From the NCBI GenBank assembly GCA_964630665.1, contig CAZVVN010000006.1, positions 1 to 64,000 of the forward strand: 64,000 bases of DNA. The letters run 5' to 3'. Below the pieces are notes generated by a model. The model saw nothing but the letters and a program-made list of their open reading frames with translations. It did no database searches and was not told where the DNA came from. Numbering within the stretch: the stretch's first letter is position 1; each line of letters begins with the position of its first letter. A program made the translations under genes and the position numbers. This document shows positions 6,448 to 38,869 of the stretch, piece after piece. The stretch is from an uncultured Acidiferrobacteraceae bacterium (lineage in GTDB: Bacteria > Pseudomonadota > Gammaproteobacteria > Arenicellales > UBA868).

Positions 6448-6477
6448 TCTTAAAGCCCGGTACCAACCGAACCTCGC

Positions 6478-7071: not shown

Positions 7072-7096
7072 ACGGATATCTGACCATGATTTGAGC

Positions 7097-7171
7097 GTTA
7101 CCCAATCTCAAGGTAAGTACCCGGTAACATTTAGCCATAGGGTATAGGTTCGGTCTAATATTACCCGTAAC
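7097..7171. promoter_or_regulatory. Divergent promoter region (2H phosphoesterase <-> aminotransferase) with repeated TTACCCG(G)TAAC-like palindromic motifs
   Basis: Within a relatively AT-rich 200-bp intergenic region there are three sites: gTTACCCaatc (7097-7103), gTACCCGGTAAC (7117-7128) and TTACCCGTAAC (7161-7171). The latter two are near-palindromes with TTAC..GTAA half-sites. Confidence 0.25.
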
Positions 7172-7271
7172 GATCATGCCACGGGTTCGACCATTGGTAG
7201 CGGTACAGTTCAGAAACCCGTCATCTGGGCGATTCAAAGACCCACAATCACAATTTTCGAGAGACAAAAAA

Positions 7272-19480: not shown

Positions 19481-20224
19481 TTAAGACCTGACAGCCGTCG
19501 GCAGCCTATCCTGCCACCACTGGCGAAAGTCATTATCCGCCACTGCCGCCAACCCACCGGCGTCGACCAGCGCTCCGAGATACTCCAATACGTCCCGCTC
19601 TGACTCGACATCACAATACTTGGCGTCCATGTCAAACAAGTTCGCCTGGTGTGGTCCATCGGCACGGTCACCGACCCCTTCACGTACGACCACAGTCTGA
19701 AAGCCATGCTGCAGAGAATCAACCGCAGAGGCCCGGACACAGCCGCTGGTCGTACAGCCTGTGATGATCACGGTGTCCACGTCGAGTCCGTGGAAGTAGA
19801 CATCCAACTCCGTGCCAAAAAAAGCGCTGGCGAATTTCTTGACAATGACCTGCTCGCCCTCAACCGGTGCGATCCGCTCGTCGATCTCCACCAGCGGCGA
19901 CCCGTTGACCAGAATCGAGAGCGAAGGTACCTTCTTGATGAACACACCAGCATCGCGAAAGTCGGGGTCATAGGCCACCGTGGTGTAAACAACCGGTAGA
20001 CGGCCCCGGCGGAACTCGGCCAGCAGGCGGGATGTGGTGTCCAGTTGCCGTGTGAAGTCCCCACCCAGCGGTGAGTCCGGGTCCGTGAAGCCATTGCTGA
20101 AATCGATGATCAGGAGCGCAGGATTTTGCCCATAGCCCGAGCGACTGGCGAGCCCCTTGGCGAGGTACGACTCGCGGGTGCTGTCCTGCCAGTCATTCAT
20201 GCTGTAAAGAGGGCTGCCTGACAA
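19481..20224 (-). CDS. Isochorismatase-family cysteine hydrolase (N-carbamoylsarcosine amidase-like), cluster 2
   Basis: 247 aa. ITGCTTSGCVRASAVD and ALLIIDFSNGFTDP are close paralog matches to the 12675..13316 product. Confidence 0.75.
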   Translation of the reverse strand: MSGSPLYSMNDWQDSTRESYLAKGLASRSGYGQNPALLIIDFSNGFTDPDSPLGGDFTRQLDTTSRLLAEFRRGRLPVVYTTVAYDPDFRDAGVFIKKVPSLSILVNGSPLVEIDERIAPVEGEQVIVKKFASAFFGTELDVYFHGLDVDTVIITGCTTSGCVRASAVDSLQHGFQTVVVREGVGDRADGPHQANLFDMDAKYCDVESERDVLEYLGALVDAGGLAAVADNDFRQWWQDRLPTAVRS

Positions 20225-20244: not shown

Positions 20245-20811
20245 TCAACCAGGCCCGGATGATGACCTGGGCGGTGTCCAGCGATGGCGCCACCCCAGCC
20301 GGAATGACCGGACAACGCGGTGCAGCAGGTAGAAGAGCACAGCCAGCACTACCAGCACGAACACTGACAGCAACCGGCGGCCGAATGCAGCATCAATCAC
20401 AGAGCCGTCGTTCATCAGGTGTCCACTCAGCATCTCGACGGCCTGTATGGTCGCACCGGCACACAGGATGACGGCAGCTAGAACCGCGATCTGCAGCGTA
20501 TCGAAAATCAGATCCTGAGCGTTCGATTCAGTTACCCCCTGGAAAATACTTTTTCGAAATGACTGCCAGTGAGAGACGACGAAACTGATCACGGCGACCA
20601 GCGAGGCAAACCAGAACAATATGTTGGAGAAGTGAATTCTCGGGATATTGTCGATCAAGTACTGTACGAAAGGCTGGTAGAAAAGCAAGAAAATGATCAG
20701 AATCACGATCACAATCAGCCCAATCCACCGGCCTGGGCTGTGCCACCGACTGCTAGGCTCTTCCATCAGGTATAGGGGCCTCTTGCGGTGCCAGGAACGC
20801 AGAACGCTCAT
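20245..20811 (-). CDS. Small polytopic membrane protein (unknown family), paralog of 32788..33264
   Basis: 188 aa with about 4 predicted TM helices. Shared motifs with the 32788 ORF are FYQPF/FFQPF, GATIQAVE/GATLQAVQ and DAAFGRRL/DADFGRRI. Confidence 0.5.
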   Translation of the reverse strand: MSVLRSWHRKRPLYLMEEPSSRWHSPGRWIGLIVIVILIIFLLFYQPFVQYLIDNIPRIHFSNILFWFASLVAVISFVVSHWQSFRKSIFQGVTESNAQDLIFDTLQIAVLAAVILCAGATIQAVEMLSGHLMNDGSVIDAAFGRRLLSVFVLVVLAVLFYLLHRVVRSFRLGWRHRWTPPRSSSGPG

Positions 20812-21080
20812 GGCAGACCTTGAATCACGTCACGTCAGACACTAATGATAGTGCAGCCAGTGGGCAATGCCAAACTCAACTGATGCCAGAGTCTGCGCCA
20901 GCCCCGGAGATAAGACGCTTGCGGACCCGGCTGTAGAACCGTTCAGTGGCGTGTCGGGTCTTCCCGAGGGTAGTGTTCTGTTGTAGATTTGTCCGGTTTC
21001 AACACTAAACAGCGGCAGGCCATACGGACATGGACCAGCGCCGGCAATTGCTGGAATAACAAAGGAGAGATCGGACCCGC

Positions 21081-23150
21081 ATGTCTATCCGCCTCGGCAT
21101 CGACGTTGGAGGGACCTTCACAGACCTGTTGCTTTTTGACGAGGTCAACGAAGTGTTTCATCTTCACAAGACCCCGTCGACACCCGATGACCAGTCGCTG
21201 GCTATCCTGCAGGGCGTTGGCGATCTTCTCGACCAGTCCGGGGTATCTGCCGACCAGGTCCAGTCGCTCCTGCATGGTACGACAGTTGGAACCAACATCG
21301 TTCTCGAGGGGAAAGGGGCCAGAGTCGGCCTGCTGGTCACCGAAAACTTTGAGCAAGTACTGCATCTGGCCAGATCGCAGACACCCGGGCCACTGGCTGG
21401 CTGGATCACCATGCAGAAACCCGATCCCCTGGCTGATCTTGAATTCACCCGGGGAATACCCGAACGGATCAACGCCCGCGGGCAAATTATCCAGCCAATG
21501 GACGAGGCCCATGCCCGACAACTGATCGATGAGTTGGTGAACAAAGGCGCCGAATCGATCACGATTTCGCTGCTGCATGGCTACACAAACCCAACCCATG
21601 AGCGGAAACTTCGTGACATCATAGCGGTCACCTATCCTGATCTGCCCGTCTCGATATCCTCGGACATCCTCCCCGAGTTTCGCGAATACGAACGCACCCT
21701 CGTGACTGTCATGAACGCGTATATACGCCCAGACATGCGCGGATACCTGGCAGGTTTCAAGCAGAAGCTCGAAGCCCTGAATTCCACCCCCAAGCTGCAC
21801 ATTGTCCGCTCGGACAGCGGACTGATGGGTATCGAACATGCGATGGAGTCCCCGGTCTACACGCTGCTGTCAGGCCCCGCCGGCGGTGTCGGCGGGGCAG
21901 CCTACCTGTCCAGACTGACGGGACACCCGGATACGGTCGGCTTCGATATGGGCGGCACATCGACCGACATCTCCCTGATTCGAAACGGGCAGCCCACCGC
22001 ATCCCGGCAGACGTCACTCGGGAGTTACCCGATCAAGATCCCATCGGTCGAAGTCCACAGCGTAGGTGCGGGCGGTGGCTCGATTGCCCACGTCCCGATG
22101 ACCGGAGCTTTACGGGTAGGACCTGAAAGTGCCGGTGCCGTCCCGGGGCCTGCCTGCTACGGCAACGGTGGTACGGCAGCCACGGTGACCGATGCCAACG
22201 TAGTTCTCGGCCGCCTGCCGGAGTACCTGCTCGGCGGGAAAATGCCGCTCGATATCAAGGCAGCAGAAGATGCTGTCGGGGCAGTCGCACGACAACTCGA
22301 TCTGGACGTTTTCGAAGCCGCCCAGGGCATCATCGACATTGTCAATGAGAACATGTTCGGCGCCCTGCGCCTGACCACGGTTCAAAAAGGACTGGACCCG
22401 CGGAACTTCGGCTTGGTGGCGTTCGGTGGCGCTGGCCCGTTGCATGCCAATGCCCTGGCGATTCTCGGGCGGTGCTATCCCGTCATTGTGCCCCCTACGC
22501 CAGGGGTGTTGTCAGCGCTCGGTTTTCTCCAAGCCAGTGTCCGGAACGAAGCCAACCAGAGCATCATCCGGAACCTCTCCGATGTCGCCCCGGAGGAGTT
22601 GGGCAACATCGCATCCCGCCTGACTGATAACATCAGAAACTGGCTCTCTGGAGAAGGCATTGCTGTCAACGACCAGTCCTTGCAGCACGAGATCGACATG
22701 CGCTACCTCCGACAGGGCTATGAACTGTCGCTGCCATTTCAGCCAGAGAAAATCACCCAGGCAACACTGCAGGATCTGGGTGAGCGCTTCAATACCCTGC
22801 ACGAGCAACACTACGGGTTCAAGGTGAACTCGGTCGTGGAGATCGTCAACCTGCGCGTGATCGGCTTGGGTAAGGTTGCCGAGATGAATTCGCCAAAAGC
22901 ACGGCCTGGCAGTGCTGATCCAGCGGCTGCCTTGGCTGGGGAGCGACAGGTTTTCTTCGATGGCGCATCATTTGCTACAAATATCTACGAAAGAAACGGG
23001 TTGACAGCGGGTAATGAGATCACCGGCCCGGCCATCATCAGCCAGACCGATGCGACTACCATGATCCACCCGGATCACGTTGCTACAGTCGATGAGCACC
23101 TGAATATTCTTATCCAGCCCAGGATCCCGGCTACCGAGACCAGACACTAG
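21081..23150 (+). CDS. hyuA: Hydantoinase A / oxoprolinase family protein (HyuA-like), cluster 2
   Basis: 689 aa beginning MSIRLGIDVGGTFTDLLLFDE. It is preceded by a Shine-Dalgarno-like AAAGGAGAGA. Hydantoinase_A core motifs run throughout. Confidence 0.85.
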   Translation: MSIRLGIDVGGTFTDLLLFDEVNEVFHLHKTPSTPDDQSLAILQGVGDLLDQSGVSADQVQSLLHGTTVGTNIVLEGKGARVGLLVTENFEQVLHLARSQTPGPLAGWITMQKPDPLADLEFTRGIPERINARGQIIQPMDEAHARQLIDELVNKGAESITISLLHGYTNPTHERKLRDIIAVTYPDLPVSISSDILPEFREYERTLVTVMNAYIRPDMRGYLAGFKQKLEALNSTPKLHIVRSDSGLMGIEHAMESPVYTLLSGPAGGVGGAAYLSRLTGHPDTVGFDMGGTSTDISLIRNGQPTASRQTSLGSYPIKIPSVEVHSVGAGGGSIAHVPMTGALRVGPESAGAVPGPACYGNGGTAATVTDANVVLGRLPEYLLGGKMPLDIKAAEDAVGAVARQLDLDVFEAAQGIIDIVNENMFGALRLTTVQKGLDPRNFGLVAFGGAGPLHANALAILGRCYPVIVPPTPGVLSALGFLQASVRNEANQSIIRNLSDVAPEELGNIASRLTDNIRNWLSGEGIAVNDQSLQHEIDMRYLRQGYELSLPFQPEKITQATLQDLGERFNTLHEQHYGFKVNSVVEIVNLRVIGLGKVAEMNSPKARPGSADPAAALAGERQVFFDGASFATNIYERNGLTAGNEITGPAIISQTDATTMIHPDHVATVDEHLNILIQPRIPATETRH

Positions 23151-23163
23151 CGAGGAGAGATCG

Positions 23164-25479
23164 GTGAGTAGCAAATCAGCATCACTGGAAGAACTGGTCA
23201 GGGCCAACAAGGCGCAGTTCGACCGGATCTTTTCGACACAGATGGGAACGCCGGATGCACAACCGGGTGACACTGCCGAACCGTCTGAAACCCCGGCTTC
23301 AGTGGCAGAAGACGGTCAGGCTCCCCTGGACAGCAGTATCAGAAAGGTCCTGACCGAACGTTACGGCGACGGCTGGTCGCAGGAGATTGTCGAGCACAGT
23401 ATCGACGGTGACGAGGTCCGGGTCGTGTGCAGACTCGAAGCCGATGGATTGGCCAGTACGCAGCATGGCAACGCCAGGAACAGCGGCAACGTCGGGATCG
23501 CTCTGCAGCGTGCCAGCGACAATGCTCTGGCCCGCTGTTACCGTGAACTGGACCCAGACGGCACCCGAGCAACTGACTCATTTAAGGCGCCTGCGGCTTC
23601 AACATCTTCCCTGCCCCAGGATCTCCTGCCTACCGCTGCTGTCCGTTTAGCGGCCAGCCAGCGACAACGACCGGGGCAGCAGATCGATACAGTCACCCTG
23701 GATCTGATCGAAAACGCTCTCAGGAACGCGCGCCATGAAATGGACGCGGTACTGTTCCGCTCTGCCATGTCCCCAGTCATACGCGAACAGCACGACGAAT
23801 TCCCGATGATCACCGATCGACGGGGGCGAATGATTGTCGGTCAGTTCGGTTCCTACGTCGCCCAGATGCTCCGTGAGAAGAAGTTCGACCTCTCACCGGG
23901 AGACGTGATTCTTCAAAGTGATCCCTACCAGTGCGGCGGTGCGATCAGTCACATCAACGACTGGCTGGTCCTCGTTCCGGTGTTCCACCAGGAGGCTCTG
24001 GTCGGCTTCAGTTCCATGTTCGGACACATGATGGATGTTGGCGGACCAGTCGCCGGCAGTATGCCTACTGGCGCAACCACAATCTATGGGGAAGGCATCC
24101 GAATCCCGCCCATCAAGATCTTTGAGAAAGGCAAAGTCAACCAGGCAGCGCTGGATCTGATCCTCAACAATACCCGAACACCTCAGATGAACTACAGCGA
24201 CCTGATGGCAATCATCGCTGGAAGCCGTGCAGGTGAGAAACGGGTGGTGGAAATCTGTGACCGGTTTGGGCGAGAGACTTATTTTCAGGCCTGCGAGGCC
24301 CTCCTTGACCGTACCCAACAGGCCATGAAACGACTGATCGTCCAAAACCTGCCCACGGAACCCCAGTCATTCGAAGATTATGTCGACGATGACGGCTGTG
24401 GCAACGGCCCGTTCAAAATGAAACTCACACTCTGGCGGGAGGGTGAGCACGCTTTCTTCGACTGGACCGGTACCTCTGACCAGGCACCCGGCCCCATCAA
24501 CTTCTACCTGCACGAAGGTATGTTCAAGATGTTTATCGGGGTCTACATGATCATGGTCTTCGACCCACAGATCCTCTTCAATGACGGGTTCTATGATCTG
24601 GTCCATGTCACCATGCCCACAGGATCCGTACTGCAGCCCGAGTTTCCTGCAGCACTGGGCTGCAGGACCCACGCCCTGGCACGCCAATTCGATGTCCTGG
24701 GCGGTGCACTGAGTCACAAAGCCCCTGAGCTGGCCACTGCAGCGGGCTACGGCTCCAGCCCGCATTTTCTCTACTCTGGCATTGACCGGCAGGGTACCCC
24801 GTTTCAGTTGATGGAGATCCTGTATGGCGGTATTCCCGGCAGACCTGTTGGCGACGGCCTGGATGGGCATTCGTGGTGGCCGCTTTTTGAAAACATTCCG
24901 ACCGAATACCTTGAGATTTATTTCCCTCTGGTGGTCGAAAGCTACGCCAGCATCCGCGACTCCGGCGGCGCTGGCCAGCACCGCGGGGGCAACGGTGTCG
25001 AAAAGATCTACCACATTCTGGAGCCTGGGGAGATCTCGATCCATGACGACCGGCACCAAAGCCAGCCCTGGGGTATTCTCGGAGGCAAACCCGGTGCCTG
25101 TTCAGAGAAATGGATCATCCAGAAAGAGGCAGGGCGTAAAGCACTGTCCTCAAAAGTCGACAATGTGCAGGTCTATCCTGGTGATAGAATCATTTTCAGG
25201 ACCGCCGGCGCCGGCGGCTGGGGTGACCCCCTGGAACGGGAGGTGGGCGCAGTCAGGAACGACGTCGCGCGCAATCTGGTCGGTGTCGATACCGCGCGAC
25301 AGGCGTACGGTGTCATCATCAACGAAAACACCCTCGAGGCTGATGTCAGGCAGACCGAGGAGTTGAGGCAGAGAATGAGGAACAACCGATCCCCGCTGGC
25401 TGTCTTTGACTTTGGCAGCAGGATTGTCGGGGTTTCCCACAGGAATGGGGTCGAATCTGGTGAGCAGGCCCCGGTTTGA
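23164..25479 (+). CDS. hyuB: Hydantoinase B family protein (HyuB-like) with a roughly 170-aa N-terminal extension containing a Rad52-like minidomain, cluster 2
   Basis: 771 aa. The Hydantoinase_B core starts near residue 175 (TLDLIENALRNARHEMDAVLFRSAMSPVIREQHDEFPMI). The N-extension contains LTERYGDGWSQEIVEHSIDGDEVRVVCRLEADGL...ALQRASDNALARCYREL. It follows hyuA after a 13-bp gap. Confidence 0.85.
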   Translation: MSSKSASLEELVRANKAQFDRIFSTQMGTPDAQPGDTAEPSETPASVAEDGQAPLDSSIRKVLTERYGDGWSQEIVEHSIDGDEVRVVCRLEADGLASTQHGNARNSGNVGIALQRASDNALARCYRELDPDGTRATDSFKAPAASTSSLPQDLLPTAAVRLAASQRQRPGQQIDTVTLDLIENALRNARHEMDAVLFRSAMSPVIREQHDEFPMITDRRGRMIVGQFGSYVAQMLREKKFDLSPGDVILQSDPYQCGGAISHINDWLVLVPVFHQEALVGFSSMFGHMMDVGGPVAGSMPTGATTIYGEGIRIPPIKIFEKGKVNQAALDLILNNTRTPQMNYSDLMAIIAGSRAGEKRVVEICDRFGRETYFQACEALLDRTQQAMKRLIVQNLPTEPQSFEDYVDDDGCGNGPFKMKLTLWREGEHAFFDWTGTSDQAPGPINFYLHEGMFKMFIGVYMIMVFDPQILFNDGFYDLVHVTMPTGSVLQPEFPAALGCRTHALARQFDVLGGALSHKAPELATAAGYGSSPHFLYSGIDRQGTPFQLMEILYGGIPGRPVGDGLDGHSWWPLFENIPTEYLEIYFPLVVESYASIRDSGGAGQHRGGNGVEKIYHILEPGEISIHDDRHQSQPWGILGGKPGACSEKWIIQKEAGRKALSSKVDNVQVYPGDRIIFRTAGAGGWGDPLEREVGAVRNDVARNLVGVDTARQAYGVIINENTLEADVRQTEELRQRMRNNRSPLAVFDFGSRIVGVSHRNGVESGEQAPV

Positions 25480-25509: not shown

Positions 25510-28095
25510 TTGAGAACGGGGATTTCACCCATGTCAATTGAAACGTTGATCACACTGGTGATCCTGGCCGTCATTGCGGTCGCGATCTTCTACATCATCT
25601 CTGTCTGGGTCTACAAAAGGGCCCCGGCCAACATGGGTTTTATACGGACGGGGTTCGGCGGAACCAAGGTCTGCCTGGGCCAGGGGGCGATGGTGCTGCC
25701 GGTCTTCCATGAAGTCAGCTGGGTATCACTGGAGACCATAAAGCTGATTGTCAGCCGCTCCCGTGACCAGGCGATACTGACCTCAGACAAGATCCGTGTC
25801 GACGTGGTAGCCGAACTCTACACCCATGTCGGACACACGGAAGAGGACTTATTGACCGCCAGCCGTAGCCTCGGAGAGAAGACCTTCGACGCCGACAACG
25901 TCCGGAACCTTCTGGAGGCAAAGATCATCAGCGCCTTGCGCAGCTATGCAGCGACCAAGACACTGAACGAGTTGCACGAAAACCGAGACACCTTCGCAAA
26001 AGACATCAAGAGCCAGGTCCGCGACAGTTTCCAGGCCAATGGCCTGAACCTCGAAGAGGTCACCATCGTGACAATGGAGCAAACCGGCAAGGAGTATTTC
26101 AAGACCGATAACGTGTTCGATGCCGAAGGGCTCAAGATCATCACGGCGATCACCTCCAAGGCCAAACGCGAAGTTCACGACACCGAGAAGAAAGCCAGTG
26201 TCGCTATTCGTCAGAAAGAACTCGATACCCAACTCGAGCTGCTCGAGATCGAACGCCAGGAGGCCTTTGCCAAGGCCAATCAGGATAAAGCAGTGTCCAA
26301 TGAGCAGGCCCTGCGGGTTGGTGAAAAACAGCGTTACGTCCTTGAGCAGAAAATGGCGGTCGAACAGAAAGAAATCGAGAACGAACAGACGCTGGAGCAA
26401 CTTCGGACCGACCGGGATGTCGCGATCATCGAAGAGGCTCGTAAGCGTGAAATCGCCGAGATTGAGAAAACCCGGATCACCGAACAACAAAGGCGGGACC
26501 GGGAGATCCATCTAATCTCCAAGGCCAAGGAGGAGGAACTCGCCAATATCCAGCGGAACCTGGATCTGGAAAAAGCCGAGAAGGATCGGCAAATCGAACT
26601 TCACGTAAAATCAAAAGAAGAACAACTCGCCCAGATCCAGCGTGAACAGGCACTGGAGATTGCAGAGAAGGACAAGCAAATCCAGTCCATCGCAAACGAC
26701 CGGCAACGTCAGGAGGCTGAAATTCTCCGACAGACTGCGATCACGACCAGCGAGGAACAGGCCCGTGAAGAAAGGGTCAAGGCCAGTGAAATTGCCGAAG
26801 TCGCGATTCAACAGCAGAAACTTGCGAGCCGTCTGTCCCTGCTGGATGTGGACAAGAATGACGCTTTTGCAACAGCGACCCAGGAAAAAGAAATTGCCGA
26901 AGAGCAGGCTAGGATCCTGACCCAGAAGCAGTTGTTTTTGCTCGAGCAGAAGTGGCAGGTGGAGCAGGAAGAAATCCACAAGGAACTCTCTGTCGAACAG
27001 GCGCAGATAGACAAGGAAGCACAGGTCCTGCTGGAATCACAGAAAAAAGAAACGGCCGAAGTGCAACGCTCACTGGCCCGACAATCCGAGGAACGCAATC
27101 GGGAAATCGCCCTGGCGGCCAAGGAAATGGAGCTCGAGCAGGCCGAGGCGCGTCGCCTTGAGGCCACCGCGGCCCGGCAGAAAGCCGAGCACGAGGCCGA
27201 ATCGGTGCGGCACGTCGCGGATGCTGAGCGGCAACGTATCATTGACCTGATAGAGGCAGAGAACAGCGCCGAGACCCGGCGGGTGGAGGAAGAAAACAAG
27301 GCGCAGATCTCTAGAATGCATATGCTCGCCCAGGCCGAAGCCCGCAAAGAATCAGCACAGCGTGAGGCGGATGCCACCCTGACGAGAGCCAGGGCCTCCA
27401 GTGAGGCGCAGCAAATCAATGCGCTCGGTATTGAAAAAGAAGCTGCCGCCAAAGGCCGCGCCGAGATGGAGATCGAGCAACTGCGGGTTGACAACACCCA
27501 GCGCATGCTCGAGGCGGAGGCCAGTGGTATCGAGGCCAAAGCCGACGCGCTCAAGAAGTACAACCTGGCGGCGACTTTCCTGGAGCTTTCCAAGCTGCAT
27601 ATCGAGGCCGAACGTGATGTGCGCAGCGATCAGGCCAAAGCCATGGGCAATGCCCTGCAGGGTGCCCAGATCCGCATGTACGGCGGCAGCGACGATGGGA
27701 CCATAGACAACATTCGGAGCCTGTTTACCTCGGGCTTCGGCGTCGGTGAGGCCCTAGAAGGTCTTGCCCAGTCGATGCCGGAGGGCCTGCGGCAACGCTT
27801 TGCAGAAAACGGTATCCGTGGCCTGTTCGGTGCCCCCGGAGGTGCCGGGCGCTTCCAGCACGCGGTGACCGAAATTGGAGAGCTTCTGACGCAGACTTTG
27901 AAAACAAAGAAAAGCCGGGAAGAAACAGATTTCAGGGACGCCATGCTGCAGCTCGAAGAGGCCGCGGGATCGGATAAGTCCAAGTTAGAAGCAGTTTCGC
28001 TGCTGACTGATTTCAACCAGGCCGGGGTGTTCGATGAAGTGTCGTTCGAGACCGTCTGGAGCCTATTGCTGGCAACCTCGAAAAGCGTCAACTAA
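25510..28095 (+). CDS. Flotillin / SPFH (band 7) family protein with N-terminal TM helix and a very long coiled-coil region (861 aa)
   Basis: It has an N-terminal hydrophobic helix (IETLITLVILAVIAVAIFYII). The SPFH domain follows (GFIRTGFGGTKV...IVTMEQTGKEYF). About 450 aa of heptad-like E/K/Q/R/A-rich repeats come next, then a flotillin-like C-terminus. The gene sits 30 bp after hyuB. Confidence 0.8.
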   Translation: MRTGISPMSIETLITLVILAVIAVAIFYIISVWVYKRAPANMGFIRTGFGGTKVCLGQGAMVLPVFHEVSWVSLETIKLIVSRSRDQAILTSDKIRVDVVAELYTHVGHTEEDLLTASRSLGEKTFDADNVRNLLEAKIISALRSYAATKTLNELHENRDTFAKDIKSQVRDSFQANGLNLEEVTIVTMEQTGKEYFKTDNVFDAEGLKIITAITSKAKREVHDTEKKASVAIRQKELDTQLELLEIERQEAFAKANQDKAVSNEQALRVGEKQRYVLEQKMAVEQKEIENEQTLEQLRTDRDVAIIEEARKREIAEIEKTRITEQQRRDREIHLISKAKEEELANIQRNLDLEKAEKDRQIELHVKSKEEQLAQIQREQALEIAEKDKQIQSIANDRQRQEAEILRQTAITTSEEQAREERVKASEIAEVAIQQQKLASRLSLLDVDKNDAFATATQEKEIAEEQARILTQKQLFLLEQKWQVEQEEIHKELSVEQAQIDKEAQVLLESQKKETAEVQRSLARQSEERNREIALAAKEMELEQAEARRLEATAARQKAEHEAESVRHVADAERQRIIDLIEAENSAETRRVEEENKAQISRMHMLAQAEARKESAQREADATLTRARASSEAQQINALGIEKEAAAKGRAEMEIEQLRVDNTQRMLEAEASGIEAKADALKKYNLAATFLELSKLHIEAERDVRSDQAKAMGNALQGAQIRMYGGSDDGTIDNIRSLFTSGFGVGEALEGLAQSMPEGLRQRFAENGIRGLFGAPGGAGRFQHAVTEIGELLTQTLKTKKSREETDFRDAMLQLEEAAGSDKSKLEAVSLLTDFNQAGVFDEVSFETVWSLLLATSKSVN

Positions 28096-28119: not shown

Positions 28120-29202
28120 ATGCCAGAGTACGACGTCGTTCTGAGCGACGTCTGCAAGACCTTCTCCGGTGATACCCGGGCCGTGATCGATTTCAATGCC
28201 AAGATCGAACATGGTGCATTCGTCGCGATGCTCGGGCCAAGCGGTTGCGGCAAAACCACGACGCTTCGCATGATCGGAGGGCTCGAGGAAGTCACATCGG
28301 GAAAGATTTACCTGTCCGGCACCGATGTGACCGACCTGCCGCCCTCGGAGCGTGACACCTCGATGATGTTTCAAAGCTTTGCCCTGTTCCCGCACCGTAC
28401 GGTACTGCAAAACGTCGAGTTTTCGTTGAAGATGCGGGGCGTGTCACCCGAAGTCCGCCTGCGCCAGACCTGGGAAATGCTGGAACTGATCGGGCTCAGT
28501 GAACTGGCCCAACGCTATCCCAGGGATCTCAGTGGCGGCCAGCAGCAGCGTGTGGCCCTCGGCAGGGCCTTGATCAGTCATCCCACCGTTCTACTCCTCG
28601 ATGAACCACTCGGCTCTCTGGATTACAGCCTGCGTCAGGCGATGATGGTTGAATTGAAGAAAATTCAGCGGGAACTGGGCATCACCTTCATCATGGTGAC
28701 GCATTCCCAGCAGGAAGCGTTGTCCATGGCTGATCAGGTCATTGTGATGAGTGACGCCGTCATTCAGCAGATCGGCACCTCCCGGGAAATCTACGAGGCG
28801 CCCAAGACCCGGTTTGTTGCTGAGTTCATCGGCACCAATAACCTGTTTTCCGGTGTGGTCCGCTCCCAAAGTGGTTCCATCGTGATCCTTGAGCAGAATG
28901 ATCAACTCTTTTACGTTACAGCCGATGACTCAGCAGACAGCATACCGATTGGTGCCGAAGCCTATCTGTCGGTCCGAGCAGACAAGATGCATACTGGCCA
29001 CCAGAATGAGATGGCGAATCACGTAACCGGCAATTACCTGGCCACCGAATACCTGGGGTCACTTGAGACTGATGTCTTTGAGATCGCACCCAACCACTTC
29101 ATCCATGTGGAACAACATCGTGATTCAATACAGCGCGATTACCAGGTCGGTGAGCCGGTCGAGATCAGCTGGCCAACAAACGCCGGGGTACTGCTCCAAT
29201 AA
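28120..29202 (+). CDS. ABC transporter ATP-binding protein, PotA/FbpC-like with C-terminal TOBE-like regulatory domain
   Basis: Walker A GPSGCGKTT, signature LSGGQQQRVALGRAL, Walker B LLLDEPLGSLD and H-loop VTHSQ. The C-terminal 120 aa are typical of PotA-type importers. Confidence 0.85.
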   Translation: MPEYDVVLSDVCKTFSGDTRAVIDFNAKIEHGAFVAMLGPSGCGKTTTLRMIGGLEEVTSGKIYLSGTDVTDLPPSERDTSMMFQSFALFPHRTVLQNVEFSLKMRGVSPEVRLRQTWEMLELIGLSELAQRYPRDLSGGQQQRVALGRALISHPTVLLLDEPLGSLDYSLRQAMMVELKKIQRELGITFIMVTHSQQEALSMADQVIVMSDAVIQQIGTSREIYEAPKTRFVAEFIGTNNLFSGVVRSQSGSIVILEQNDQLFYVTADDSADSIPIGAEAYLSVRADKMHTGHQNEMANHVTGNYLATEYLGSLETDVFEIAPNHFIHVEQHRDSIQRDYQVGEPVEISWPTNAGVLLQ

Positions 29203-29228: not shown

Positions 29229-29272
29229 GAAAACAGCGACTGCGGTGCTGCGTTAACCGCCTGCCAGTCGCT
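29229..29272 (-). terminator. Candidate intrinsic terminator between the convergent PotA-like and PotC-like genes
   Basis: An 8-bp inverted repeat AGCGACTG/CAGTCGCT (29235-29242 / 29265-29272) encloses an inner 5-bp stem GCGGT/ACCGC. On the minus strand the structure is followed by TTTTCC. It overlaps the potC-like stop. Confidence 0.35.
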
Positions 29273-30098
29273 AGTGCGTCCTGCGATACAGCAGGCTGTA
29301 GACCACCAGAAAAAGACCAATCATCACCAGTGAAAACAGTGTCGACGCCGTACCAAGTGCGAACAGTGTCGGTCGAATCCGCTGAGTCATCGATGCATTG
29401 ATATCCAGGGGCAGTGTGTTGAACTCTCCGGCCAGCAGGGTTGTGCGGGCAAATTCATCATAAGACAGCGTGAAGCCGAACAATCCGGCGGCAACGATTC
29501 CGGGCAGGATCAGAGGGAAAGTAACCTCCTTGAACACCGTCCACTCGTCAGCACCCATGTCTCGGGCTGCCTCCTCCAAGCTGGTGTCGAAACGATTGAA
29601 GACCGCCATCATGACCAGGAAACCGAACGGCAGAGTCCAGACCACATGGACGCCAAGGCCCGAAGACCACCATGCTGCTGGAATACCGATCTGCCTCATA
29701 AGAGTCGCCAGTCCCAAACTCAGCAGAATGCCTGGCACCATCAGGCCAGCCATGACCGTATAGAACAGCAGATTAGAACCTACAAATCGTTTCCGGAATG
29801 CCATTGCCAACATGGTTGAGAAAAGCGCCGTGATCACCATCACGATCAAAGCCAGGATCAAAGAGCGCAACAGTGCCCCCTGCATATCACCTACGGTCGA
29901 AGGCTCAACAAGTTTCTGCCACCAGTAAAAACTCGTACCACGCATCGGAAAACTGGTACCGCCACGGCGTCCCTGGAACGACAGAATAAACATAGCGATC
30001 ATCGGGCCGTAAATAAAAACCAGAAACAAACCGTAGTAGCTGCTGAACAACGTGGTGATCCATGCCCGTTTTTTTCTTTGCCTGGTCCAGCGCGCCAT
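29271..30098 (-). CDS. ABC transporter permease, PotC-like
   Basis: 275 aa, 6 TM, with the EAA loop motif EEAARDMGADEWTVFKEVTFPL. Confidence 0.8.
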   Translation of the reverse strand: MARWTRQRKKRAWITTLFSSYYGLFLVFIYGPMIAMFILSFQGRRGGTSFPMRGTSFYWWQKLVEPSTVGDMQGALLRSLILALIVMVITALFSTMLAMAFRKRFVGSNLLFYTVMAGLMVPGILLSLGLATLMRQIGIPAAWWSSGLGVHVVWTLPFGFLVMMAVFNRFDTSLEEAARDMGADEWTVFKEVTFPLILPGIVAAGLFGFTLSYDEFARTTLLAGEFNTLPLDINASMTQRIRPTLFALGTASTLFSLVMIGLFLVVYSLLYRRTH

Positions 30099-30100
30099 GG

Positions 30101-31090
30101 TTACAACTCCTTTCGGATGTTCACCAGGCGCAAGATAATCACCACGCCGATCATCATTGCCAGCATCAGCATGATTGCGTTGACAGCAGCGAACGGATAG
30201 TTTGCGATCGCGTAATAATTCAGAATGACAGTACCGACTGTACTGGCTTTGCCCCCGTAGACGACCACGGCCGTTGCAAATTCACCCATCAGCATGACGA
30301 ATATGAAGATCATGCCAATGGCCACCCCGGGCAGCGACAAAGGCAGGATGATCTCGCGAAAAATCTGGAATGCCGTGGCACCCATATCCCGGGCAGCTTC
30401 CAGAATATCGTTGTCGATCTTGGCCAGTGAGAAGAAGATCGGGCCCACACACAGGACCACATAGAGCTGCGCCAGCGCAGTGGTATAGCCAAATTCTGAG
30501 TAAAGCAGGAACCGGGCCGGTTTATCGATAATACCCAGTGATAGCAACAATGAATTGAGCAGTCCCCGCCGGCCGAGCATGGGCAGCCAGGCCACGGCCC
30601 GGATCAGGTAGCTGGTCCAGAACGGCACCATGCAAACCAGGAATAACGCCATCTGCCACTTGAAGCTGCTGACCCGCATGGCCAGAAAATAGGCGATCGG
30701 GTAACCGAGCAGGAGGCACAAGACCATCACTTCAAGGGTGTAGGCAAAAGTGCTGCCGAGAGTCCTGAGAAACACGCTGAGTCTCAGAAAATTCCTGTGG
30801 TCGGGGTCAAAAAATCCTTCCGCCAGAAAATACTCAGCGTAGTTACCGAAGTTAAGATCGGGCTCCAATCCATGACCTGTAGAAGTCCACAGGCTGAACA
30901 CAACAATACTGACCAGCGGAATCACCAGAAAGACAAGCAGCCAGACCGCACTGGGGGCGATCAGCCAGCCAACCGGGAACCCACCTTCTCGATGGCGGCG
31001 CTTCACACTGGCTTCGACCCCAGGGCGCTCGGGCGCCACAGGCTGGTCTCCGACCAGGCCCGGATGACTCGATGGCGTCAACGACTCCAT
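30101..31090 (-). CDS. ABC transporter permease, PotB-like
   Basis: 329 aa, multi-TM, with the EAA motif LEAARDMGATAFQIFREIILPL. It sits 3 bp upstream of the PotC-like gene. Confidence 0.8.
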   Translation of the reverse strand: MESLTPSSHPGLVGDQPVAPERPGVEASVKRRHREGGFPVGWLIAPSAVWLLVFLVIPLVSIVVFSLWTSTGHGLEPDLNFGNYAEYFLAEGFFDPDHRNFLRLSVFLRTLGSTFAYTLEVMVLCLLLGYPIAYFLAMRVSSFKWQMALFLVCMVPFWTSYLIRAVAWLPMLGRRGLLNSLLLSLGIIDKPARFLLYSEFGYTTALAQLYVVLCVGPIFFSLAKIDNDILEAARDMGATAFQIFREIILPLSLPGVAIGMIFIFVMLMGEFATAVVVYGGKASTVGTVILNYYAIANYPFAAVNAIMLMLAMMIGVVIILRLVNIRKEL

Positions 31091-31306: not shown

Positions 31307-32596
31307 TCAGGCCGTCAGGAACTCGGTCCAGCGCTTGACCAGGTAGTCGTTCTCTTTCATCAGCGAGTTCCACACACCGATATTAGAGAAACGATCCCAG
31401 TACGACCCACCATCCCGGACCTCACCTTTAGGTACCAGCGGATTACCGAACGGGTCCATCAGTTCCTTGGCCGCAGGCTTGCCCAGGTACCAGTAGTCCC
31501 ACTCTTCCGGCTCAAGATGCTTCTTGACGTTCTCGGTCTGGGACATGTAGTACCCCTGTCGGGCCACAAACGCGCCACCCCAACCGCTCAACCACCAGTT
31601 GATATACTCGTAGGCCTGATCGAGTTTCTTACCGGACACCTTGTTCGAAATCGACAGTCCACCGTGCCAGCCACGATAACCTTCTTTGAGGTCAGCATAG
31701 ATACACGGCACACCTTCCGACCTGATTGCAGTCACTGCAGGCGACCACATGCTCTCGACCGCGACTTCACCTGAGACCATGAGGTTGACGGACTGACCGA
31801 ATGTCTCCCAGAACGCGCGGAAATGACCTTCCTGCTTTTTCTCGATCAGGAAGTCGATCAAAACATCGATTTCCTCACGAGTCATATCCCCCTTGTCCTT
31901 GAAATCGATCAGCCCAATAGCCTCTGCTGCCATGGCCGCGTCCATAACACCGATCTGCGGCACGTTCAAAAGTGCAGTTCTGCCCCGGTACTTCTCATCA
32001 AACAGCTCACCCCAACTCTCCAGCTTGCCACCGGTCTCTTCCGGGTTGTATCCCAGCGTGTCAGCGTTGTGCCAAGTCGGTACGGCTGAGACCCAGCGTG
32101 TCGGGCCATCCACCAGATCACCGCTTTCGTTCAGCCACAACTTCCGGAAAGGTGCGTCGCCGTCACCTTCCTTGGAGTCAGGTGTGAGCTTGCCTTTCTT
32201 GCTCAGGTCAGAGATAGAGTCCCACTCCTTGACCCGAGTAGTGTCTGTCGGGTGCCAGACTTTGGCTGGAATGAAGACGTCAAAGTCGTTGTAGTACCCT
32301 TCGGCGATGTCGTACTGGTCATTCTGGTTGAGCATCTTGCCGAACATGGCGCCATAACCCAGTGCCTGACCACGGATCTCGAATCCCAGGTCCTTAGAGG
32401 CCTGAGCCTGGATCTCGTTGATGATACTGACACCCAGACCAATGGTGCGCAGCGGTTCATTTCCCGTCGAGATGTAAGGGAAACTGGCGGCCACCGTGCC
32501 GGCCGCAACAGCTTTTGCCGTGGTTCCCATGAACTCACGGCGGGTAACATCAGTGCGCCCTTTGGCGGCGCTCCGTTTCTTCGTGGTGTCTGTCAT
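31307..32596 (-). CDS. ABC transporter periplasmic substrate-binding protein (solute-binding family 1, PotD/PotF-like) with Tat signal
   Basis: 429 aa. The N-terminal RREFMGTTAKAVAAGTVAASF is a twin-arginine signal. AAGGAGG lies 11 nt upstream of the ATG. Confidence 0.8.
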   Translation of the reverse strand: MTDTTKKRSAAKGRTDVTRREFMGTTAKAVAAGTVAASFPYISTGNEPLRTIGLGVSIINEIQAQASKDLGFEIRGQALGYGAMFGKMLNQNDQYDIAEGYYNDFDVFIPAKVWHPTDTTRVKEWDSISDLSKKGKLTPDSKEGDGDAPFRKLWLNESGDLVDGPTRWVSAVPTWHNADTLGYNPEETGGKLESWGELFDEKYRGRTALLNVPQIGVMDAAMAAEAIGLIDFKDKGDMTREEIDVLIDFLIEKKQEGHFRAFWETFGQSVNLMVSGEVAVESMWSPAVTAIRSEGVPCIYADLKEGYRGWHGGLSISNKVSGKKLDQAYEYINWWLSGWGGAFVARQGYYMSQTENVKKHLEPEEWDYWYLGKPAAKELMDPFGNPLVPKGEVRDGGSYWDRFSNIGVWNSLMKENDYLVKRWTEFLTA

Positions 32597-33432: not shown

Positions 33433-34476
33433 TCAAGGAATAGCCCTCAACAGCAACACAGCAAAAAGAATGACAAAAATACTGTCCCGTGCCGGTCCAC
33501 CACCGTGACGATCAGTACCCCGGGTCGCGATCAGTGCAATGATCTCGATAATCAGGAATATCAGCGCAAGTACGGCGAACGGCCATACGCTGGACCACCA
33601 GGACACGTCCTCCGATACTTCCAGTCCACGGTGCATCCGCCAAATTTGAAGCAACAACGGGATGATCGTGAAGTAACCATAGGCCACCAGGAACCGGTAG
33701 CGGGTCACCTTTCGATCGAGTAGCCAGAAGGTAAAAAAGAACAAGACAAGATTGAGTAAATCCCAAAACAGAACGTTGTAGTTTTCATTGCCGCCGTGTC
33801 TGACCAGGTTTAGGAACCCCAGAAACAGCAGAAAGGTCGCCGCATCGCAGAACACCCACTCCCTGAATGGTTCTCCTTTACCCTTGATCGACCAAGAGCG
33901 TGTCGCTTTGTCGAACAGCAGTACCAGCGACACTCCGAGAACTGCGGGATAAAGCAGGTAGACCACAAGCCGGTACTGATCGACCTTGTCGACAAAGGTC
34001 CAGTTCAACACCAGAAACGCGAGAACAAGTGCCGCCAGGCCCAGAAGCCGGGTTCCGCCCGGTGTCTGCGATAGTTCCGGATCGGTCGTATCCGCTACCG
34101 CGCCGGCGTCACGGGTTGTGGATCGCCCTCGGACGATCATGCCGACCAGGAAAGCAATCAGTGCGACCGTGCCGATGACCAGCATCGCAACCAGAAATAC
34201 CAGGGAACGTGTATCTCCCCGCCAGGAATCGCCACCCTCCATTCCACCGGGATAGAGGAAGACAATAATCACAATCACTGCAACGACGACCGCTACCAGG
34301 GCGAGAACTGCCAGCAGATATTCGAACCACCGGGCCCCGGCACGGGCAGATCCTGGAGCGGTAGCCCGCGCACCGCTTGCGACCCGCCGTACGACCAGGT
34401 GGACACAGAACGCAACAAGCGCTGCAGCCGCGATCGCGGCCATGACCAGGATAAATATCAGGGATTGTGTTTCCAA
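33433..34476 (-). CDS. Polytopic integral membrane protein (about 9-10 TM, unknown family)
   Basis: 347 aa, highly hydrophobic with regularly spaced TM-length segments. It sits directly downstream of hyuB (cluster 3) on the same strand with a 72-bp gap. Confidence 0.5.
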   Translation of the reverse strand: METQSLIFILVMAAIAAAALVAFCVHLVVRRVASGARATAPGSARAGARWFEYLLAVLALVAVVVAVIVIIVFLYPGGMEGGDSWRGDTRSLVFLVAMLVIGTVALIAFLVGMIVRGRSTTRDAGAVADTTDPELSQTPGGTRLLGLAALVLAFLVLNWTFVDKVDQYRLVVYLLYPAVLGVSLVLLFDKATRSWSIKGKGEPFREWVFCDAATFLLFLGFLNLVRHGGNENYNVLFWDLLNLVLFFFTFWLLDRKVTRYRFLVAYGYFTIIPLLLQIWRMHRGLEVSEDVSWWSSVWPFAVLALIFLIIEIIALIATRGTDRHGGGPARDSIFVILFAVLLLRAIP

Positions 34477-34548
34477 ACGTTTGCCTCCGACTCAGGAACT
34501 CAAGATTTCACGACAGGCAGGTAGTCTGAAACCCTTCGATCCCCGCAG

Positions 34549-36711
34549 TCAGTTATCTCGCAGAACTTTCTGCGCACATTTGAACAGGCTCTGGTCGGCG
34601 GCAGCCTGAAGGCGTGCGCCGATCGATGATGCGCTGGGGTTCTCATCGGTACCGGTTTCGCTGGCATAGGTGCCGTTGGCCCGCAACTCACCACGCACTT
34701 CGGCAAAACCTCGGCGAGAGGAGTAATAAACGACGTCAAAACTCCAGGCCTCACCAAACGCCTCGCGCAGGGATTCGATCGTTGAATCACGGCTCTGGCT
34801 TACACCAGAAACCGCTGTTTCAACGGCGGTCGACCTTCGGCCGGGTGCAGTCCGCTGGGCTGTTTCAGAGGTCGCAAGCCGTGATTCTCTGAGCGCAACC
34901 TCTTCGGGGCTGCGATCCCGGCTTTCACTCAGGGTCCCAGCCGGCTGACTGCGCATCTGGGCGCGGAGCGATTCGGTGGCAGTGTCATTGACCCTTTCTG
35001 CAGCCAGATCAACAACCACACCATAGGCCGCCTTAGCGTGTTCCACCGTACAGAAATCGTCCAGTACATCTTCTAGAACCTGCGACGCTGGACGTTCCAG
35101 TGGGTCGCCGTATCCGCCGCCACACGGTGCGTAGAACGCGTGAACCTCACCGGCTTTGATCTTCAGGCCGGAGAACTTGGCCGGCATCTGTTGAATGTCA
35201 TCCGGATCATCGACGTTGTAGATCTCGACCTTGCCGGTTGTTCCCGGCCAACCGCCGAATATGCCCCAAGGCACGTCATGGTGCCGTTCGTTTTCGTGGG
35301 TGATGAAACCGTCGGTGAGCACGCGCTGGGACTTGACCACACCGATACCACCGCGAAAGCGCCCGGCTCCGGGCAGCACATCGTCGCGAAGCTCATAACG
35401 GTCACAGATCATCGGCAAGTGCATCGCGAGGTCTTCCAGCGGATTGTTACGCGTATTGGCCATCAGGTTATCTATGCTGTCCGGGCCATCGGAGAGCGGC
35501 CGACCTCCATAGGCGCCCTCGTTGACTTCCAGAAAGACCCAGTAATCACCCGATGGCCTGACTCCCGAATAAGAGACAAAAGACAGCGACGCGGAACTGC
35601 CAGCGATGATCTGATCGGGTAGAACCGGCGCCAGAGCCTTATAAATGAGGTCGATCACCCGGTTGACCTGGGTAAACCTTGCTTCTGCGGCAGCAGGAAA
35701 CTCAGGGTTGTAGATCGAACCTTTGGGCGCGATCACCTTGATCGGTCGGAACGAACCTTCGTTGGACGGCACCTGGATCTCCGAGGTTTCGGCATCCAGC
35801 AGCAAAGAGCGGATCGCGCAGAAACATGCGACTTTAGTCGAACCTTCAAATGGCACGTTAAATCCGGTCTCGACCTGGTCTGATGAACCGGTCAGGTCGA
35901 TCTCAATCGAATCGCCTTGAACCCGCACGCAGACCTTGATGGGCAAGCGTACGTCGCGGTTTTTGCCGTCATCATCCAGATAACCTTCCGCACGGTATTC
36001 ACCATCCGGAATCTTGTCGATCTTCTGCCTCAGTATCCGCTCGGTGTAGTCCATCAGCTGGCCGGTGGCTGCCAGGATCGTGTCCTTCCCATAACGCTCC
36101 ATGAGTTCGACAAAGCGCCGCACACCCAGCTTGGCAGAGGCGATCTGAGCCTCTATATCACTTTGCAACTGTTTGGCAGCGCGGCTGTTTCGTCCCAGAA
36201 ACTCCCACAGGGCGTCATTGCGGACACCCCTTTCATAGAGCTTGGTACCGGCAAACAGCATGCCCTCGGCATAGACATCCGGTATATCGATGATCAACCC
36301 CGGGGTGGCCGCTCCGATATCTAGATGATGCGCGGTGTTAGCTGCAAAACCGACCAGCTGGTCCTGATAAAAACAGGGAATCACAATGGCAAGGTCAGGC
36401 GAGTGACTGGCTCCGAAGTAGGGGTGGTTGTGAAGCACCACGTCGCCCTCGTTCCAGACACCACCTTGCAGTGACTCCTGGATGCCGTACAGGTAACCAG
36501 GCAGAGAACCAATGTGCAACGGTGTCGACTCCGATTCACACAAAGTGTTGAAATCAGTATCAAACAGGCCGGCACCGAGATCCTGCGATTCGCGAATGAT
36601 CGACGAGAAGGACATCCGGTAAAGGATATGGCCCATCTCCTCGGCGATGGTATCCAGCGCGCCGCTGATGACCTGTAAAGTGATCGGATCTAGTTCGTCA
36701 GCTGCCATCAC
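34549..36711 (-). CDS. hyuB: Hydantoinase B family protein (HyuB-like) with a roughly 130-aa C-terminal extension containing a Rad52-like minidomain, cluster 3
   Basis: 720 aa. The Hydantoinase_B core is marked by DPITLQVISGALDTIAEEMGHILYRMSFSSIIRESQDLGAGLF... and GGGYGDPLERP. The C-terminal tail contains LREAFGEAWSFDVVYYSSRRGFAEVRGELRANG...LQAAADQSLFKCAQKVL. Confidence 0.85.
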   Translation of the reverse strand: MMAADELDPITLQVISGALDTIAEEMGHILYRMSFSSIIRESQDLGAGLFDTDFNTLCESESTPLHIGSLPGYLYGIQESLQGGVWNEGDVVLHNHPYFGASHSPDLAIVIPCFYQDQLVGFAANTAHHLDIGAATPGLIIDIPDVYAEGMLFAGTKLYERGVRNDALWEFLGRNSRAAKQLQSDIEAQIASAKLGVRRFVELMERYGKDTILAATGQLMDYTERILRQKIDKIPDGEYRAEGYLDDDGKNRDVRLPIKVCVRVQGDSIEIDLTGSSDQVETGFNVPFEGSTKVACFCAIRSLLLDAETSEIQVPSNEGSFRPIKVIAPKGSIYNPEFPAAAEARFTQVNRVIDLIYKALAPVLPDQIIAGSSASLSFVSYSGVRPSGDYWVFLEVNEGAYGGRPLSDGPDSIDNLMANTRNNPLEDLAMHLPMICDRYELRDDVLPGAGRFRGGIGVVKSQRVLTDGFITHENERHHDVPWGIFGGWPGTTGKVEIYNVDDPDDIQQMPAKFSGLKIKAGEVHAFYAPCGGGYGDPLERPASQVLEDVLDDFCTVEHAKAAYGVVVDLAAERVNDTATESLRAQMRSQPAGTLSESRDRSPEEVALRESRLATSETAQRTAPGRRSTAVETAVSGVSQSRDSTIESLREAFGEAWSFDVVYYSSRRGFAEVRGELRANGTYASETGTDENPSASSIGARLQAAADQSLFKCAQKVLRDN

Positions 36712-36732
36712 TTATATGCCCATGACGGGTAT

Positions 36733-38808: not shown

Positions 38809-38869
38809 GATCGCGGTCCATTGGCCGGTCGCATCTGACGTTCAGTTTCCCCGATCTCATGGTCTGGTG

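Follow-up and report, generated by a model that had tools for sequence, protein, structure and literature searches.

Gene order at the hyuAB-SPFH locus

The window analyzed here comprises the first 64,000 nucleotides of contig CAZVVN010000006.1 (assembly GCA_964630665.1), from an uncultured Acidiferrobacteraceae bacterium, and our subject is a giant flotillin-type gene of the SPFH family that lies within it, directly downstream of hyuA and hyuB. Genes for an isochorismatase-like protein and for orf187 on the reverse strand are followed by hyuA, hyuB, the SPFH gene and a PotA-like ATPase gene on the forward strand, and then by genes for PotC-like and PotB-like permeases and a solute-binding protein (SBP), again on the reverse strand (Table 1). 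An earlier reading of the letters alone (the sequence-only reading) had placed an 861-residue protein in the open reading frame (ORF) at 25510-28095 (+), starting at a TTG. The ORF exists, but conservation across loci favors a different start: in 13 species-level loci the similarity among homologs begins at the Met of the ATG at 25531 (MSIETLITL...), and the residues encoded in frame ahead of it bear no relation to one another. The TTG at 25510 is thus probably the wrong start and the ATG at 25531 the real one, which shortens the product to 854 residues, the exact length of all close database homologs. Because of this start, the gap from the hyuB stop (25479) is 51 nt, the 30 nt given earlier being correct for the TTG only. 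The ATPase gene does begin 24 nt past the SPFH stop, as had been reported.

Table 1. Features of the hyuAB-SPFH locus and of the paralogous hyuAB cluster in the window
Feature	Coordinates	Strand	Basis or remark
Isochorismatase-family amidohydrolase, weakly BiuH-like	19481-20224	-	Pfam/NCBIfam
orf187, predicted protein with four transmembrane (TM) helices and basic C-terminal tail, divergent from hyuA	20245-20811	-	No Pfam match, relaxed thresholds included
HyuA, Hydantoinase_A family	21081-23150	+	Nearest NCBIfam model caprolactamase alpha, well below cutoff
HyuB, 771 aa; Hydantoinase_B core residues 175-689, 174-aa N-terminal extension	23164-25479	+	Pfam, NCBIfam, translation, cross-locus comparison
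HyuB N-terminal peptide S-L-E-E-L-V-R-A-N-K-A-Q-F-D-R-I-F, residues 7-23, candidate docking/targeting peptide	23182-23232	+	Single occurrence in window
Minidomain copy, HyuB1 residues ~55-130	within 23164-23685	+
Giant flotillin-type SPFH protein, 854 aa (coding sequence including stop)	25531-28095	+	ORF list, N-terminal conservation, Pfam Band_7, top fold match flotillin 9bq2
N-terminal TM helix, residues 3-27	25537-25611	+	AlphaFold2 (AF2) helix and sequence
SPFH/Band_7 domain, residues 28-184	25612-26082	+	PF01145, 61 bits; predicted local distance difference test (pLDDT) 85-93; Foldseek matches
Helical module 1, residues ~222-415	26194-26775	+	Self-alignment z=17; lag-29 autocorrelation z ~8
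Three tandem 29-residue repeats in module 1, residues 319-405	26485-26745	+	Repeats in register
Helical module 2, residues ~422-607, old tandem duplicate of module 1; one 29-residue repeat at 517-545	26794-27351	+	Self-alignment; hhalign/BLASTP gap versus shorter flotillins
Diverged flotillin-like C-terminal "Flot" region, residues 643-720, ending in conserved ...IRMYGG motif	27457-27690	+	Sub-threshold Pfam Flot match; common to 647-aa outgroup P0138
Gly-rich linker, residues 712-769, then small helical tail domain, residues ~770-854	27664-28092	+	AF2 models; tail pLDDT 73-93
PotA-like ABC ATPase (ABC_tran + TOBE_2)	28120-29202	+	Only ATPase gene beside convergent permease/SBP genes
PotC-like permease	29271-30098	-	Pfam/NCBIfam
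PotB-like permease	30101-31090	-	Pfam/NCBIfam
SBP_bac_8 solute-binding protein	31307-32596	-	Convergent with operon
orf346, multi-TM protein	33433-34476	-	No Pfam match, relaxed thresholds included
hyuB2	34549-36711	-	~180-aa C-terminal extension: linker and same kind of alpha/beta minidomain as HyuB1 N terminus
Minidomain copy, HyuB2 C terminus	~34549-34800	-
hyuA2	36733-38808	-
Isochorismatase-like protein	38870-39565	-

The coupling of the SPFH gene to hyuAB on one side and to the PotA-like ATPase gene on the other, which had been noticed in this stretch, is borne out elsewhere: the order hyuA-hyuB-SPFH-potA is found in 42 SPFH-positive loci from metagenome-assembled genomes (MAGs) and metagenomes of Gamma- and Alphaproteobacteria, with SPFH identity down to ~48-55%. 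Loci with this order include 15 GTDB species representatives, one Rhodospirillaceae-type contig, 26 further metagenome loci and L102, the taxa being taken from record titles. Wherever the sequence extends far enough, a PotA-like ATPase gene lies 3′ of the SPFH gene, at a median distance of 23 nt (no more than 42 nt in 26 of 32 loci), and the median gap between hyuB and the SPFH gene is 82 nt. No promoter- or terminator-like site was matched in the short gap on either side of the SPFH gene, a null result of little evidential weight. A canonical operon in which an NfeD gene accompanies the flotillin gene is described in the literature, and a mutually homologous YqiJ/NfeD-like gene lies directly upstream, with no hyuAB, in all three outgroup flotillin loci that we inspected. 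The 64-kb window holds no NfeD/YqiJ-like gene (best tblastn E=0.012, spurious), and the clade therefore seems to have left the canonical NfeD(YqiJ/YuaF)-flotillin arrangement.

Several loci depart from the common arrangement in detail. Four high-GC complete chromosomes, L007 (7100-13260), L008, L013 and L014, have 430-1360 nt inserted between the SPFH and ATPase genes, with a UDG-family ORF inside the L007 insert; in L008, hyuA was not detected beside hyuB. Two contigs of ~2 kb assigned to Actinobacteriota and Acidobacteriota MAGs (L011, Acidimicrobiales; L015, Vicinamibacteraceae) carry an 82-85%-identical proteobacterial SPFH-potA pair, most likely through binning error rather than horizontal transfer.

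A HyuB peptide that accompanies the SPFH gene

Cross-locus comparison divides the N-terminal extension of HyuB into three parts: a conserved peptide of ~17-20 residues, a non-conserved, disordered Pro/Ala/Gly-rich linker, and a small alpha/beta minidomain. The peptide follows the consensus [ST]-[LF]-[DEN]-x-L-[LVF]-x-x-N-[KRQ]-x-x-F-[DE]-x-[ILV]-F, or in short form SL[DE][DE]L..ANK..FD.[IL]F. In a scan of 80 metagenomic loci for HyuB (core identities 45-81%), we found it in all 22 SPFH-linked HyuBs with complete N termini, 20 of them by direct motif match, one (L046) in another frame through a frameshift, and one (L043) under a stricter pattern. It occurs in none of the 45 HyuBs without a downstream SPFH gene (Fisher p ~4e-15, kinship ignored), and eight of these unlinked proteins, inspected singly, start right before the core with zero extension. 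Across 37 loci, the motif appears once per locus, always at the HyuB N terminus and at no other place in ~1 Mb translated in all six frames.

The distribution of the peptide tracks the SPFH gene rather than the enzyme. In L005, L009, L010 and L096 (hyuA/hyuB at about 3500-7900), the HyuA and HyuB cores are just 41-45% identical to those of the window, yet the peptide, the SPFH gene (77-84% identical) and the ATPase gene (~75%) are all present, together with permeases that are 88-93% identical. HyuBs with 63-65% core identity and no SPFH gene also lack both the peptide and the ATPase. Because divergent cores carry peptide and SPFH gene and closer, SPFH-less cores carry neither, the peptide follows SPFH linkage and not core phylogeny. 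The four loci suggest an exchange of the enzyme core for that of a paralog, with the N-terminal peptide kept. That the peptide is found only with the SPFH gene suggests a dedicated scaffold-client pair.

The sequence-only reading had sought the link between HyuB and the SPFH protein in the adjoining "ring-forming minidomain." This proposal does not hold: the minidomain is found also on HyuB2, a protein without an SPFH partner, and is absent from the SPFH-linked HyuBs of L008, L013 and L014. Its presence is independent of the SPFH gene, and we rejected it as the link. It recurs at either end of HyuB paralogs (...W-S-x-E-I-V-E-H...V-R-V-V-C-R-L...G-I-A-L-Q-R-A-x-D-x-A-L...) without a Pfam match, and the HyuB extension gave nothing credible at relaxed Pfam thresholds. 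A second semi-conserved linker element, ...G-L-[LV]-G-x-S-H-R-P-P-T-x-[AE]-D-L..., lies ~25-35 residues past the peptide in L006, L012, L022, L023, L026, L027 and L032-L036 and is absent from the HyuB of the window.

The SPFH protein

Assignment of the protein to the flotillin type, as first proposed, is upheld by three kinds of comparison. Pfam Band_7/SPFH (PF01145) matches residues 37-181 at 61 bits against a cutoff of 23.6 bits. The best Foldseek matches are flotillin-1/2 (9bq2 and 9l3g, E ~1e-10), followed by stomatin, prohibitin, HflK/C, erlin and MVP, all of them including flotillin at probability 1.00, with QmcA also among the fold matches; and hhalign aligns residues 3-334 and 478-581 with YqiK-type flotillins (100% probability, E=2e-80). 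BLASTP against P0261 gives 31% identity over ~630 residues, and a PDB sequence search with the full protein gave zero matches. The flotillin C-terminal region that had been described corresponds to a weak match only: Pfam Flot (PF15975) aligns with residues 643-720 at 18.8 bits against a 27-bit cutoff (E=0.0018) when the isolated region 610-730 is searched, and the full protein gave no such match at E<=0.01. The NCBIfam FloT equivalog model NF058507 scores 35 bits against a cutoff of 700, by which measure the protein is not a FloT ortholog.

An exhaustive HMMER search of 1.8 billion representatives returned only a small set of proteins with at least 50% identity, whose full-length members have 804 and 938 residues. 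The next tier, at 30-38% identity and mostly 530-745 residues, consists of YqiK-type flotillins with the Pfam Flot domain and of SPFH proteins of ~620-700 residues without it. The last ~85 residues, which form the tail domain, have a counterpart in none of ~130 full-length outgroup representatives, and on this comparison the helical tail is restricted to the hyuAB-linked clade. The tail, modeled as a helical bundle, found no fold match in the PDB at E<1 and nothing credible at relaxed Pfam thresholds.

An AF2 monomer prediction, made from a 36-sequence alignment of database proteins, contains a TM helix (residues 3-27), the SPFH domain (28-184, pLDDT 85-93), a near-continuous helix from 195 to 711 (~515 residues), a Gly-rich linker, and a confident small helical domain at ~770-850. 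An SPFH alpha/beta fold continued by a long helix is also the arrangement of solved members of the family. The basic residues K29 and R30 directly after the TM helix point, by the positive-inside rule, to an N-out/C-in topology in which the body of the protein would be cytoplasmic.

The helical region

The protein is much longer than FloT and YqiK through an expanded, repetitive helical region, in agreement with the original description. Smith-Waterman alignment of residues ~222-415 with ~422-607 scores 270, compared with 96+/-10 for shuffled sequences (z=17), and autocorrelation of the sequence peaks at lags of 200 residues (z 7.2), 29 residues (z 6-8) and 11 residues (z 4.2). Residues ~335-477 have no counterpart in shorter flotillins in the hhalign alignment, a gap that coincides with the duplication, and BLASTP against the 647-residue outgroup P0138 skips residues ~325-470. 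Because both alignments leave this stretch out, the extra length can be equated with the duplicated module, and the alignments indicate that it arose from an old tandem duplication of a helical module of ~190 residues together with a 29-residue repeat of variable copy number. Complete relatives (n=31) have lengths of 804, 814, 851-854, 909, 920, 936-938 and 965 residues; several of the steps are multiples of 29 residues (851 to 909 to 938; 936 to 965), and complete 29-residue units have been added or removed in the alignment. The ORF of an additional locus (L046), with 606 residues, is probably truncated, its locus carrying a frameshift.

The sequence-only reading had called this region a coiled coil of ~450 residues, at nt 26200-27600 (residues ~223-690). 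The extent is sound and, given the AF2 helix at 195-711, if anything too small, but the term does not fit: there is no heptad signal at 3.5 residues (z about -0.2), and the strongest hydrophobic period, 3.65 residues, is not significant over all periods tested (family-wise p=0.18). A canonical heptad coiled coil is therefore unsupported, and "coiled coil" is to be read as a long charged helix. The same region leaves a mark on base composition. Between 26001 and 28000, and only there, the AT skew jumps to +0.34 and the GC skew turns positive, which is the footprint of the Glu/Lys/Gln/Arg/Ala-rich helical region (GAA, AAA, CAG and GAG codons) and not a replication or mobile-element signal.

Discussion

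The co-occurrence of the HyuB peptide with the SPFH gene raises the question of whether the SPFH protein, HyuAB and the transporter form one functional and physical module, a reading to which we give an even chance. The "membrane-scaffolded catabolic assembly" suggested by the sequence-only reading is strengthened because the N-terminal peptide of HyuB co-varies with the SPFH gene, and it stays conjectural. In such a model, the protein is a giant p-flotillin (SPFH2 type) that, from sequence and model, has an N-terminal anchor, a predicted cytoplasmic SPFH domain, a non-heptad wall helix of ~450-515 residues and the clade-specific tail. By analogy with flotillin, HflK/C and stomatin cages, its oligomers may build a tall basket-like or cage-like structure that sits on the inner membrane and faces the cytoplasm. 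The clade has become a fixed part of a catabolic and uptake module that comprises orf187 on the opposite strand, hyuA-hyuB-SPFH-ABC ATPase, and the convergent permeases and SBP. The peptide, on its long disordered linker, could dock HyuAB, a ring-opening amidohydrolase dependent on ATP, onto the flotillin assembly or inside it, the most plausible docking site being the clade-specific C-terminal tail. HyuAB would then be held beside a PotABC-like importer whose ATPase would be co-expressed with the enzyme, such that an imported cyclic amide of lactam or hydantoin type might be channeled to the enzyme and hydrolyzed at its point of entry, coupling uptake to ATP-dependent ring opening.

A bolder form of this proposal, which we advance tentatively and think unlikely, is that an extra-tall, membrane-attached SPFH cage serves as a dedicated metabolic compartment, or metabolon, to which HyuAB is recruited by the targeting peptide, with the ABC importer beneath and the number of 29-residue repeats tuning its height. 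If true, bacteria would have a membrane-bound equivalent of the cargo-loaded vault or encapsulin, and for the first time an enzyme client and its docking code would be defined for a bacterial flotillin.

Several observations weigh against the module. Shared ancestry inflates the co-occurrence statistic, to which only the divergent-core loci give partly independent support. Association with the SPFH gene is as strict for orf187 and the ABC ATPase as for the peptide; the partner of the peptide could thus be the ATPase, orf187 or the membrane itself instead of the SPFH protein, and orf187 could be either another module component or that real partner. The amphipathicity of the peptide is modest (muH 0.48, top ~6% of shuffles). 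No second cargo family bearing it was found, a 46-residue profile having returned just 28 short proteins (96 candidates scored), one of which (P0286) is a frameshift-split HyuB N terminus in the same operon context. In the AF2 model, the helical region has a mean pLDDT of 69 (predicted TM-score 0.33), with possible hinges or low-confidence breaks at ~340-360, 540-570 and 636-670, so that a single continuous wall helix is not established. None of the HyuA, HyuB, SBP, permease and isochorismatase-like proteins reaches an NCBIfam equivalog cutoff, which leaves the substrate class putative. Finally, L007 retains the SPFH and ATPase genes with no hyuAB upstream, and the transporter link may therefore be the more fundamental one.

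The main rival builds on this last point. The flotillin may chiefly serve the ABC importer, stabilizing, clustering or gating the PotABC-like transporter in the way that SPFH proteins of the stomatin type act on channels and transporters; HyuAB would be no more than co-regulated pathway enzymes, and the peptide would bind the ATPase, orf187 or the membrane. We regard this as unlikely, though it draws on more than L007: the tiny distance and universal pairing between SPFH and ATPase genes, the placement of the ATPase gene with the SPFH gene and apart from its permeases, and the solved complexes of SPFH proteins with membrane proteins, such as stomatin-aquaporin-1 (9zd2) and HflK/C-FtsH. It leaves unexplained why HyuB has a peptide and linker exactly when the SPFH gene is present, even where the HyuB core is divergent. 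The two views are compatible, since one scaffold could hold both transporter and enzyme.

Less probable still, in our estimate, is that this is an ordinary, general-purpose flotillin, a microdomain or stress scaffold whose location is incidental, and that the HyuB peptide is intrinsic to the enzyme, for instance in assembly or regulation of HyuA/HyuB. SPFH genes do occur in many unrelated contexts, often without a phenotype (PMC13086221), and giant SPFH2 proteins are already known (PMC2636767). Against a chance location stand the gene order kept in two proteobacterial classes despite SPFH identities that fall to about half, the loss of the canonical NfeD partner that the near outgroup keeps, and the joint appearance of the clade-specific tail and the HyuB peptide; that related HyuBs function without an extension argues against an enzyme-intrinsic need. 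We give practically no credence to the idea that faulty assembly or annotation produced the long helical region, with repeats collapsed or expanded or two genes fused: the protein is internally repetitive and frameshifts are present in long-read assemblies of related loci, but Tandem Repeats Finder detects zero tandem repeats in the DNA of the gene, its direct repeats are diverged and at most 26 nt long, the reading frame is uninterrupted and conserved over its full length, and the exact length of 854 residues recurs on more than 100 independent assemblies or contigs at 77-100% identity, which together rule it out.

Comparison with known systems helps to place the module reading. The protein shares its N-terminal membrane anchor, SPFH domain and long charged helical region with p-flotillins (SPFH2) such as Bacillus subtilis FloT/YuaG and Escherichia coli YqiK, but differs from them in its sub-threshold Flot match, its distance from the FloT model and its extra C-terminal helical domain, and in that an hyuA-hyuB-SPFH-ABC ATPase setting replaces the adjacent NfeD/YuaF/YqiJ gene. 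Giant SPFH2 proteins of ~800-1000 residues with a strongly expanded coiled-coil region have been known since Hinderhofer et al. 2009 (PMC2636767), and at 854 residues, with relatives of 804-965, the window protein falls within the range of the giant SPFH2b group (800-1000 residues, expanded helical region), to which it is likened by length and expansion. Giant size, the protein class and the cage principle are thus not new. The closest structural match, the eukaryotic flotillin-1/2 cage (9bq2; PMC11260169), likewise has a charge-rich wall helix without heptads. In that cage the wall is a right-handed barrel stabilized by clusters of charge, and the length of the wall helix is proposed to determine how large the cage becomes (PMC11260169), an idea that bears directly on the window protein. 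Its CC1 helix of 189 residues was the longest in a survey spanning 44-189 residues (PMC11260169), compared with ~450-515 residues and a duplicated module here. Flotillin-1/2 is anchored by a hairpin or acylation, in contrast to the predicted TM helix of the window protein.

Specific partners enclosed by or docked to SPFH-fold cages have precedents in HflK/C-FtsH (7wi3, 9cz2), QmcA-YbbJ (8z5g), stomatin-AQP1 (9zd2) and the vault complex MVP-PARP4 (9bw6), all of which are among the fold matches of the window protein and whose partners are encoded nearby or recruited through dedicated domains. The present case differs in its candidate client, which is HyuAB (a soluble metabolic enzyme), an ABC importer or both, and in that docking would fall to a short N-terminal peptide; no pairing of this kind was found in the literature searched. 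Cargo peptides of encapsulins and bacterial microcompartments (BMCs) have the same layout, namely a short, conserved, helix-prone terminal peptide on a poorly conserved disordered linker, present only with the shell or scaffold gene. The likeness is a functional analogy and not membership, because the scaffold here is an SPFH protein rather than an HK97-fold or BMC shell, only one cargo family is seen, and binding is putative. The literature on flotillins and oxoprolinases yielded one relevant paper, on rhodopsin-linked flotillins of marine bacteria (PMC10308929). It describes a flotillin gene fixed beside, and co-transcribed with, one specific partner gene, as in the module proposed here; the partner is a membrane protein, rhodopsin, the flotillin clade and taxa are different, and the text consulted reports no giant helical expansion. 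No paper in the literature searched treats SPFH proteins and hydantoinase together. Three features appear to be new, none of them found in that literature: the constant place of the gene between hyuAB and the ABC-ATPase gene with no NfeD gene, the tail peculiar to this clade, and a HyuB peptide whose occurrence matches that of the SPFH gene.

Specific clients have rarely been well defined for bacterial flotillins, and deletion often produces no phenotype. This locus offers a concrete, sequence-defined pair for testing, consisting of a flotillin clade with a unique tail and an enzyme with a unique N-terminal peptide, beside a dedicated importer ATPase. If docking is real, SPFH cages would be programmable to recruit soluble metabolic enzymes by a short peptide, which would be useful for engineering, and the natural series of lengths from 804 to 965 residues in 29-residue steps would bear on the proposed relation between wall-helix length and cage size. 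Since the hosts are abundant uncultured marine Gammaproteobacteria and related Alphaproteobacteria, the module may also bear on the turnover of cyclic amide nitrogen in the ocean.

Neighboring genes and minor observations

The permease and SBP genes keep their positions relative to the operon in L001, L003, L006, L009, L010 and L012. Homologs of orf187 (57-96% identity) were detected in SPFH-positive loci only, always divergent from hyuA. The isochorismatase-family amidohydrolase next to it is probably a downstream pathway enzyme. The window cluster might conceivably belong to an N-methylhydantoin/creatinine-type pathway. An ORF of 298 residues at 20943-21839 (-), which overlaps hyuA, is probably no gene, its apparent conservation being that of the antisense frame of hyuA.

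A protein of 75 residues on a 552-nt contig (P0313) joins a HyuB-type peptide (...SFDDLLKANKQQFD...) to a C-terminal fragment of a FAD-linked oxidase (PF02913). The contig, too short to judge, may be a small chimera or may hint at a second type of cargo. On the far side of the transporter genes, a paralogous cluster without an SPFH gene (33433-39565, -) encodes a second HyuAB, such that a single ABC importer is flanked by two HyuAB systems.

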